Source of the DNA: Escherichia coli
GTDB taxonomy: Bacteria > Pseudomonadota > Gammaproteobacteria > Enterobacterales > Enterobacteriaceae
Direction: 5' to 3' (one strand)
Assembly (NCBI RefSeq): GCF_041886205.1
Contig: NZ_CP169029.1
DNA length: 64,000 nucleotides
Below, piece by piece: positions 24,691 to 25,290 of this stretch. Each line of letters opens with the position of its first letter. Position 1 is the stretch's first letter. Under the pieces are notes generated by a model. It saw only the letters and a list, made by a program, of their open reading frames with translations. It had not been told where the DNA came from and did not search any database. The position numbers were made by a program, and so were the translations under genes.

Positions 24691-25290
24691 ATGGCTGACT
24701 ATTTTGAAATACGTGCTGATTACAATCAGCACACCATCACGGTTTATCAGGCTTACAATGATGCAATCGCTGACGTCGCCGTACGTAACGGGCGATTTGG
24801 CGCACCTTTTTCATTCAACCGCATGACCTGGATTAAACCCTCTTTTATGTGGATGATGGAGCGTAGCAACTGGGGACTGAAAAAAGATCAACAACACATT
24901 CTCGCAATCCGAATCAAACGCACCTTCTTTGATACATTGCTGGAACAAGCGGTGCTAACCACGCCGGAAGCCCATGTGTATCCACATGCAGGCATTTGGG
25001 AAACGTTATTTGCACAAGCAAATGTGTATGTTCAGTGGGATCCCGAACGCAGTATAAATGGTAAAAAACTGGAGCACCGATCATTACAGCTTGGTATTTC
25101 CCGTAACTTGATCAGTCAATTTAACGAAGACGCCATTGTTGCCATTGATGATCTGACTCCGCTGGTGCGAAAGTGTCATAACCTTTTGATAAACGGTAAA
25201 ACAACACAGGCGAAATCCTTCCTGCCGCCAGAAAAAATTTACCCTGTTAGTGCAGCTGCGAGAAAGGCTTTGGGAATGAAAAATTCCTGA
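24691..25290 (+). CDS. Hypothetical protein, 199 aa, not present at this position in K-12; possibly a DUF4291-like family (uncertain)
   Basis: ATG preceded by GGGAGG only 25 nt after apaH stop; clean 199-codon ORF; conspicuous motif RMTWIKPSFMWMMERSNWG. The family guess is from memory only. Confidence 0.75.
   Translation: MADYFEIRADYNQHTITVYQAYNDAIADVAVRNGRFGAPFSFNRMTWIKPSFMWMMERSNWGLKKDQQHILAIRIKRTFFDTLLEQAVLTTPEAHVYPHAGIWETLFAQANVYVQWDPERSINGKKLEHRSLQLGISRNLISQFNEDAIVAIDDLTPLVRKCHNLLINGKTTQAKSFLPPEKIYPVSAAARKALGMKNS

Follow-up and report, generated by a model that had tools for sequence, protein, structure and literature searches.

The window analysed here is the whole 64,000-nucleotide (nt) stretch of Escherichia coli chromosome presented above (contig NZ_CP169029.1), and its subject is a 199-residue (aa) open reading frame (ORF) of the DUF4291 family, which lies directly after apaH. 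The gene order is lptD-surA-pdxA-rsmA-apaG-apaH, DUF4291, a 149-aa ORF and a ccdA fragment, followed on the opposite strand by folA-kefC-kefF. DUF4291 is no longer a blank family, as its fold and genomic setting link it to the biology of NAD+ and ADP-ribose. The features of the locus are as follows.

24691 to 25290, plus strand: DUF4291 coding sequence, 199 aa, ATG start, isoelectric point (pI) 9.3 (ORF listing and Pfam)
24682 to 24686, plus strand: Shine-Dalgarno sequence GGAGG, 4 nt 5' of the DUF4291 ATG (sequence)
24820 to 24876, plus strand: W/M-rich motif RMTWIKPSFMWMMERSNWG, DUF4291 residues 44-62 (sequence, conservation in 73 homologues, secondary structure of the model)
23818 to 24666, plus strand: apaH, Ap4A hydrolase of the Metallophos family, last conserved gene of the surA-pdxA-rsmA-apaG-apaH operon (ORF and annotation)
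24642 to 26086, no strand assigned: variable cassette of about 1445 bp (blastn against MG1655, composition profile)
25326 to 25775, plus strand: 149-aa ORF, candidate partner, GTG start 35 nt past the DUF4291 stop
25892 to 26071, minus strand: ccdA antitoxin remnant, a 59-aa ORF whose product matches PF07362 (CcdA); RefSeq annotates 25892-26029 (45 aa) as 'CcdA family antitoxin'
26092 to 26571, minus strand: folA, the convergent conserved flank (annotation of an identical locus, K-12 alignment)

The ORF matched the Pfam DUF4291 model (PF14124) over its full length (positions 1-180 of 180; E=2.2e-68, 230 bits; Pfam-A), and RefSeq labels an identical gene 'DUF4291 domain-containing protein'. The first-pass annotation, made from the letters alone, had linked the ORF only loosely to DUF4291, and that guess was exactly right. 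Its description of a clean ORF with a strong ribosome-binding site also held: the ATG-started frame is covered by a full-length domain match, evolves under constraint (below) and is preceded at 4 nt by GGAGG. The family motifs QA[YF], W[IV]K and [AS]IQ are present as Q20-A21-Y22, W47-I48-K49 and S131-L132-Q133 (SLQ). No N-terminal hydrophobic segment was seen in the sequence, in agreement with the earlier statement that signal peptide and transmembrane segment are missing. The DUF4291 ORF is a functional gene and not a chance reading frame.

NCBIfam, PADLOC and PHROGs returned nothing informative for DUF4291, for the 149-aa ORF or for the ccdA remnant. With neither a PADLOC nor a PHROG family match, DUF4291 is not a catalogued defence or phage family. 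Searches of PDB sequences with the protein and with a 73-sequence profile gave chance matches only. The first-pass annotation had held that its view would fall if there were no domain match and no homologues outside the strain, or a confident match to a characterised enzyme family; what we found was a strong domain match with thousands of homologues, whilst the searches just named were empty as regards characterised enzymes. A tblastn search of 50,697 phage records found no match, and plasmid matches were mostly to chromids and megaplasmids, indicating that DUF4291 is not mobile-element cargo.

Conservation was profiled across 73 diverse DUF4291 homologues. W47, K49 and W54 are invariant, and the set of positions that are invariant or at least 90% conserved comprises these three with G135, Y19, Q20, A21, R44, P50, F52, R58, Q115-W116-D117-P118, Q133, D154 and E181. 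All of them are kept in the E. coli protein. The stretch RMTWIKPSFMWMMERSNWG, singled out earlier as striking, proved to be the most conserved of the family. DUF4291 is under purifying selection, with a ratio of nonsynonymous to synonymous substitution rates (dN/dS) among divergent Escherichia alleles of 0.10-0.12, compared with 0.04 for apaH and 0.19-0.54 for the 149-aa ORF.

The family is large and widespread. A database search returned 7790 homologues at E<1e-5, and 1864 clusters had a match at E<=0.001 when the representatives of 50%-identity clusters were searched exhaustively. Identity to the E. coli protein is 80% in Superficieibacter, 68% in Listeria costaricensis and 56-60% in Chryseobacterium and Prevotella. 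Carriers include commensal and environmental E. coli as well as free-living soil and marine bacteria, and members have also been recorded in fungi and animals (PMC12522546). The proteins are mostly basic, with a median pI of 8.7. Tandem duplicate DUF4291 genes lie directly downstream in one Kordia and two Actinomadura genomes (loci L026, L055 and L063).

An AlphaFold2 model built on the 73-sequence alignment reached a predicted local distance difference test score (pLDDT) of 97.1 and a predicted template modelling score (pTM) of 0.92. It has the core fold of the ADP-ribosyltransferases (ARTs), and the closest solved structure, by a wide margin, is the toxin domain of RhsP2 (PDB 7RT7). Foldseek, a check that the first-pass annotation had proposed, independently put RhsP2 first. 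The next structural matches were mostly of the ART fold: exotoxin A (5.9), ParT/RES (5.6), diphtheria-toxin homologues, TreTu, MbcT, PARPs, IcmQ, DarT, Arr and Tpt1. Predicted membership of the ART fold is thus solid. In the model, residues 44-62 span strand 2 and the following helix, and the equivalents of the ART motifs are Y19-Q20-A21-Y22 in strand 1, R44/W47-I48-K49 in strand 2 and S131-L132-Q133-x-G135 in strand 5.

RhsP2 of P. aeruginosa ADP-ribosylates the 2'-OH of structured RNA via an R-Y-E triad, and its E1576Q variant is inactive (PMC12340436). The RhsP2 mark is reversed by bacterial PARGs (PMC11833690). An H-Y-Q ART has been reported to be active (10.64898/2026.05.07.723553). DUF4291 itself was treated in a 2025 in-silico survey (the astARTe catalogue) as the largest 'atypical' ART-like family, with E. 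coli named as a carrier (PMC12522546). The survey equates QA[YF], WIK and [AS]IQ with ART motifs I-III, reports favourable NAD docking and compares the family with diphtheria toxin and exotoxin A; RhsP2 is not mentioned, and the authors caution about over-prediction (PMC12522546). No other paper naming DUF4291 was found in the literature searched, which fits the earlier remark that the family had no assigned function. Two other identities were considered and dropped: YarT, the YbiA-associated ART of myxobacteria, is an H-Y-E toxin of the HYD1 clade, and the cytidine and guanine ARTs of PMC12945103 are pierisin-family enzymes.

Gene neighbourhoods, another of the checks proposed at the outset, were scanned at the 80 best loci, one genome per species, by clustering all ORFs and searching them with labelled seeds. 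ORF calling was crude, with many spurious ORFs in high-GC genomes, and the seeds derived from Bacteroidota, so the scan is under-powered in other phyla and may miss divergent genes. Recurrent NAD/ADP-ribose partners appeared in a minority of lineages. At least one kind of ADP-ribose gene occurs at 12 of the 80 loci and at least two kinds at 10, the multi-gene loci being essentially from Bacteroidota. In Chryseobacterium and Prevotella, DUF4291 forms part of long operons, all on one strand, whose first gene encodes an NrtR-type Nudix regulator; the order is NrtR-NADAR-ARH-DUF4291-PARG-DUF2971-SIR2-ARH-KptA-Metallophos. The metallophosphoesterase is ApaH/PrpE/Pnkp-like and KptA is of the KptA/Tpt1 type, and the operons also hold a YmdB-like macrodomain and a DarG-like macrodomain. 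At three loci (L020, L024, L025) a PARG or NADAR gene overlaps DUF4291 by 4 nt.

Immediate neighbours vary outside Bacteroidota. In a Blastopirellula, DUF4291 is followed after 13 nt by a CobB/SIR2 gene; in a metagenome-assembled genome of the Abditibacteriaceae it is preceded at 42 nt by a NudE-like Nudix gene, and in Listeria at 15 nt by a histidine phosphatase gene. TetR regulators adjoin the gene at 6 of the 80 loci, mostly in Actinomadura. Published neighbour frequencies (TetR 28%, NUDIX 18%, and Macro, ADP_ribosyl_GH and PTS_2-RNA about 10% each; PMC12522546) agree with our scan.

One of the longer family members is a direct fusion of DUF4291 to a DarG-like macrodomain that is 50% identical to the macrodomain encoded in the operons. 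The fusion lies in an NAD-salvage operon, pncB-nadE-nrtR-ARH-pncA-[fusion]-PARG-x-Nudix-KptA. Other long members carry a HEAT-like domain or an MqsA-like zinc ribbon with helix-turn-helix (HTH; P0225). In several lineages (at least four other phyla or lineages) close homologues lie amid genes for NAD salvage and ADP-ribose processing, or are fused to them. Fold, fusion and context together tie the DUF4291 family to NAD+/ADP-ribose chemistry, and the erasers involved act on nucleic acids.

Several further arrangements were seen in the same scan. A conserved 136-138-aa protein (LYRPVG..E...I...G...FPPRL.WQP.FYPVL) is encoded directly after DUF4291 at 7 Bacteroidota loci (L021, 8610-9026; L007, 11547-11957; also L019 and L024) and has no Pfam or NCBIfam match. 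The NrtR-controlled ADP-ribose operons also hold a 284-aa protein without assignment and an adenylosuccinate-synthetase-like protein. On plasmid pTS1 of Treponema saccharophilum (L015, 5977-11906), DUF4291 heads a same-strand array of small hypothetical genes, including one for an SMI1/KNR4-family protein, in a layout reminiscent of orphan immunity-gene islands. In Ralstonia and Burkholderia it stands beside two-partner-secretion or giant-protein genes (L013, L014).

The reading we favour, which we consider evenly poised as a composite whole, is that DUF4291 is a cytoplasmic, single-domain, divergent branch of the ART fold that handles NAD+ or ADP-ribose. Its parts differ in strength. It is likely that this is an ART-fold protein functionally tied to NAD/ADP-ribose. 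That it is an active transferase falls somewhat short of an even chance, and a nucleic-acid target can be proposed only tentatively. On this reading it probably acts on RNA or a nucleotide, and it is probably no classical self-poisoning toxin.

NAD+ would be bound in a cleft formed by strand 1 (Y19-Q20-A21-Y22), strand 2 with the following helix (R44, W47, K49, F52, W54, R58) and strand 5 (R130, Q133, G135). ADP-ribose would then be transferred to, or processed on, a nucleic acid or nucleotide that is conserved universally, most probably RNA. As the canonical catalytic Glu is missing, either the substrate would have to assist catalysis or another acid, e.g. D117 or E119, would have to serve. 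The mark would be reversible where macrodomain, PARG, ARH or NADAR proteins are co-encoded, and NAD would then be replenished by the NrtR-controlled salvage genes. In E. coli the gene arrived on a 1.45-kb, low-GC cassette at the apaH-folA hotspot, beside a lineage-specific helical protein.

Several points weigh against this reading. In canonical ARTs the triad is H-Y-E, R-S-E or R-Y-E, with Glu at the start of strand 5, and DUF4291 has Q20, W47 and Q133 instead. Since E1576Q abolishes RhsP2 activity, these Q-W-Q positions mean that transferase activity cannot be taken for granted. The residues were equated by means of the published structural alignment and their spacing, not by superposed coordinates, and no sequence-level similarity to any ART was found in PDB sequence and profile searches. 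Strong context is confined to a minority of lineages, as about 67 of the 80 loci had no NAD/ADP-ribose neighbour with the Bacteroidota seeds. The E. coli cassette itself lacks an eraser or salvage gene, and the adjacency to apaH may merely reflect an insertion hotspot. Biochemical or genetic data on any DUF4291 member were absent from the literature searched.

A bolder version of the favoured reading would make DUF4291 a new catalytic class of ART-fold enzyme, built around a Gln-Trp-Gln centre. RNA would receive from it a reversible ADP-ribose mark (e.g. at a phosphate end or the 2'-OH of ribose), an endogenous signal for repair or regulation that is conserved from bacteria through fungi to invertebrates; the PARG, macrodomain, NADAR and ARH proteins encoded alongside would remove the mark. 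The apaH-folA cassette would then be a tractable entry, possibly linked to ApaH-type nucleotide-cap metabolism. We regard this version as speculative and, on balance, improbable.

We also examined the cassette on which the E. coli gene resides. Homology to K-12 MG1655 stops at 24641, in the last codons of apaH, and restarts at 26087 (blastn); the K-12 counterpart is an apaH-folA spacer of about 92 bp containing repetitive extragenic palindromic (REP) sequence. GC content is 38-46% in the cassette compared with 52-59% in its flanks. DUF4291 has been horizontally acquired on this cassette and is not a conserved member of the surA-apaH operon. The first-pass annotation had raised the possibility that it sits in an operon tail. 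Its position after apaH stands, but conserved membership of the operon does not, since the gene belongs to an acquired 1.45-kb insertion in a hypervariable spacer. The DUF4291 start codon lies 24 nt past the apaH stop, and a simple promoter and terminator scan found no terminator-like site between the two genes and no convincing promoter. With so short a gap and no terminator, read-through from the surA-apaH operon is likely, and DUF4291 is probably expressed in this way. At the junction inside the 3' end of apaH (24642-24666) the last codons differ from K-12, giving an ApaH of 282 aa versus 280 aa in MG1655. No direct or inverted repeats flanking the cassette were found, and there was no Rfam match in 23500-27000.

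The DUF4291 gene was found in 540 of 5426 complete E. coli genomes, and 542 of its 543 places are chromosomal. The entire cassette is present in 536 of the 5426, and at least 80% of the gene is kept in 535 of the 540 carriers. The folA-apaH spacer is known to be hypervariable and houses the ccdO157 toxin-antitoxin (TA) islet in O157:H7 (PMC3184786, PMC7167474). The ccdA remnant is a C-terminal fragment of CcdA only, of 45-59 aa; intact ccdA and ccdB are not present, and neither annotation nor inspection of 25776-25891 revealed a ccdB. The fragment is a relic or bystander of a ccdO157-type islet such as occupies the spacer in other strains. The two insertions share their site, as the fragment at 25892-26071 attests, but the ccdO157 islet has a ccdB, absent here, and the DUF4291 cassette has no sequence relationship to it and presumably no functional one. 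A perfect 12-nt inverted repeat (26013-26024 and 26034-26045) lies in the 5' part of the ccdA fragment.

The 149-aa ORF downstream of DUF4291 had no Pfam match, even at E<=10, and direct search found homologues in Escherichia only. Relatives emerged at equivalent loci. The gene after DUF4291 in Superficieibacter is 48% identical to it (L005, 6801-7457), and in a third enterobacterial genus a 189-aa relative with 56% identity stands alone between apaH and folA, without DUF4291 (L103, 5001-5570). These relatives have at their N-terminus a CxxC...CxHC zinc ribbon, which has been lost from the E. coli protein. The latter belongs to a small enterobacterial family, of which it is a version shortened at the N-terminus. 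At loci beyond Escherichia and Superficieibacter no conserved downstream partner was found.

The 149-aa model is all-helical and of moderate confidence (pLDDT 76.7). The predicted fold resembles SsdAI, the immunity protein of the SsdA deaminase toxin, and DUF416/YjaG, helical-bundle matches being weak evidence. A family relationship to DUF416/YjaG was rejected, as profile-profile comparison with E. coli YjaG showed none. The likeness to SsdAI and YjaG is thus one of moderately confident predicted shape, with no detectable sequence or profile similarity to YjaG and with an extra zinc ribbon in the relatives. The 149-aa protein may be a binding partner of DUF4291. One E. coli lineage, represented by assemblies from three sequencing runs, has a 2-bp frameshift in the 149-aa ORF and an intact DUF4291. 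That allele, otherwise a strong test of the antitoxin idea, is absent from 537 complete genomes and known from those three assemblies only, and so carries little weight. In a comparison of window positions 24691-25800 with L097 (1681-2800) the 600 nt of DUF4291 showed 2 differences and the 149-aa ORF (450 nt) about 32, together with a 2-bp insertion near 25486 that shifts its frame. This mosaic divergence suggests that distinct alleles of the cassette's downstream half have recombined.

One alternative is an ART fold that is not a transferase: a sensor of NAD+ or ADP-ribose, a pseudo-enzyme, or a remover or converter of an ADP-ribosyl linkage (e.g. by phosphorolysis or a reverse reaction) in a broad module with NADAR, ARH, PARG and macrodomain proteins for the repair of ADP-ribosylated nucleic acids. 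In its favour, the conserved Gln (Q133) stands at the catalytic Glu position, the E-to-Q change that kills RhsP2, and an MqsA-like zinc-ribbon/HTH fusion as in P0225 would suit a ligand-sensing domain. The Bacteroidota neighbours, moreover, are mainly erasers (up to three ARH, two NADAR, a PARG and two macrodomain types), and sets of erasers like these have been suggested to form modules that defend against ART toxins (PMC11833690). Yet the extreme conservation of R44, K49, R58, Q115-W116-D117-P118, R130, Q133, D154 and E181 looks enzymatic and not purely a matter of ligand binding. Co-regulation with pncA, pncB and nadE suggests that NAD+ is consumed within the operon, although KptA or SIR2 could explain this. 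To our knowledge, no ART-fold eraser has been described. We judge a non-transferase role unlikely, but worth keeping in view. It is quite improbable that the two cassette genes form a toxin-immunity (TA-like) unit, in which DUF4291 would be a growth-inhibiting, RhsP2-like ART neutralised by the 149-aa protein. Much in the layout invites that thought: an Rhs toxin domain is the nearest structure, the putative toxin gene precedes its partner by 35 nt, Superficieibacter has kept the pair at the same locus (80% and 48% identity), and TA modules are known to land at this site, where a ccdA remnant adjoins. The partner also evolves faster, persists alone in a third genus like an orphan immunity gene, and is intact in all 537 complete genomes checked for the one known frameshift allele. 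Rather than an obligate conserved TA pair, however, we found a pair limited to two enterobacterial genera, with DUF4291 solitary elsewhere; proteins of 45-60% identity lack a conserved neighbour at most of the 80 loci, across many phyla. Occurrence in fungi and animals is hard to square with intrinsic toxicity (PMC12522546). DUF4291 has no catalytic Glu and no PADLOC match, and no Rhs, PAAR, CdiA or LXG fusion was seen among the 150 best cluster representatives, of which the longest has 524 aa. The lineage with a frameshifted partner and intact DUF4291, the moderate confidence of the partner model, its weak helical-bundle matches and the missing sequence relation to DUF416/YjaG count against this pairing too.

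The remaining explanations fare worse. TetR is the commonest neighbour in the published survey (PMC12522546) and recurs in our Actinomadura loci, and GNAT, thioesterase and transporter genes adjoin DUF4291 at several loci, as might be expected of an Arr-like small-molecule ART that modifies a xenobiotic or antibiotic. But identity of 50-60% across phyla, presence in eukaryotes and co-occurrence with DarG-like macrodomain, NADAR, PARG and KptA genes argue for a universal cellular substrate, and no resistance-gene context exists in E. coli, leaving an Arr-like role very doubtful. A gene without function in E. coli, hitch-hiking towards decay like the ccd remnant, would be at home in a locus that is a junkyard of decaying insertions, on a cassette missing from 90% of strains and next to a partner ORF truncated N-terminally relative to its kin. 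A dN/dS of about 0.1, a strong ribosome-binding site, the retention of all family-invariant residues and the near-complete preservation among carriers make it highly improbable. The slimmest chance goes to the idea, put forward in the Legionella survey, that DUF4291 is a diphtheria-toxin-like effector, secreted to ADP-ribosylate a protein of the host. No signal peptide, secretion-associated domain or secretion-system context was seen in the sequence or locus, the gene occurs in commensal and free-living bacteria, RhsP2 is a much better structural match than diphtheria toxin or exotoxin A, and the survey authors themselves warn of over-prediction (PMC12522546).

Compared with known systems, the E. 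coli protein is an ordinary, full-length, high-scoring member of the Pfam DUF4291/astARTe family, and nothing sets it apart (PMC12522546). From RhsP2 the family differs in sequence (10-11% identity), in having Q-W-Q where RhsP2 has its R-Y-E triad with an essential Glu, and in architecture: RhsP2 is the C-terminal cargo of a type VI secretion Rhs protein with a dedicated immunity protein, whereas DUF4291 is a stand-alone protein of 199 aa found from bacteria to fungi. An RhsP2-type toxin would have an immunity gene downstream, and a helical ORF with an SsdAI/DUF416-like predicted fold follows DUF4291 in Escherichia and Superficieibacter only. Diphtheria toxin and exotoxin A (ARTD, H-Y-E) and the RES toxins (ParT, MbcT) are much weaker structural matches than RhsP2; DUF4291 has no translocation or receptor domains, and their catalytic residues are not conserved in it. 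DarT-DarG and SirTM-macrodomain pairs are similar in that the DUF4291 ART fold is coupled, and once fused, to a DarG-like macrodomain and other erasers. This coupling, by contrast, occurs in some lineages only and is missing from E. coli, where no eraser is encoded nearby. The defining features of the RhsP2 toxin class, of TA systems and of known defence systems were tested for and are lacking, and DUF4291 is a member of none of them.

The DUF4291 family and its ART-like prediction were published in 2025 (PMC12522546). Our analysis adds RhsP2 as the closest solved structure, the macrodomain fusion within an NAD-salvage operon, the anatomy of the Escherichia and Superficieibacter cassette at the apaH-folA hotspot and the SsdAI/DUF416-like fold predicted for the partner family. 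These additions do not establish the function of DUF4291, and on present evidence the gene does not represent a new type of system.

The DUF4291 family numbers several thousand proteins from bacteria, fungi and some animals, and 50-60% identity between phyla is unusually high. Should DUF4291 prove to be active as an NAD+-dependent enzyme that works without the canonical Glu, it would extend known ADP-ribosyltransferase chemistry. It could then be the 'writer' for the eraser sets of NADAR, PARG, DarG-like macrodomain and ARH proteins that many bacteria encode without a known partner. If it is an inactive binder, it would be an ordinary accessory gene. The E. coli copy is a single small gene at a defined site, carried by about 10% of strains and absent from K-12, so that gain- and loss-of-function would be straightforward. 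DUF4291 is thus moderately interesting, as a tractable entry to a large and highly conserved ART-like family.

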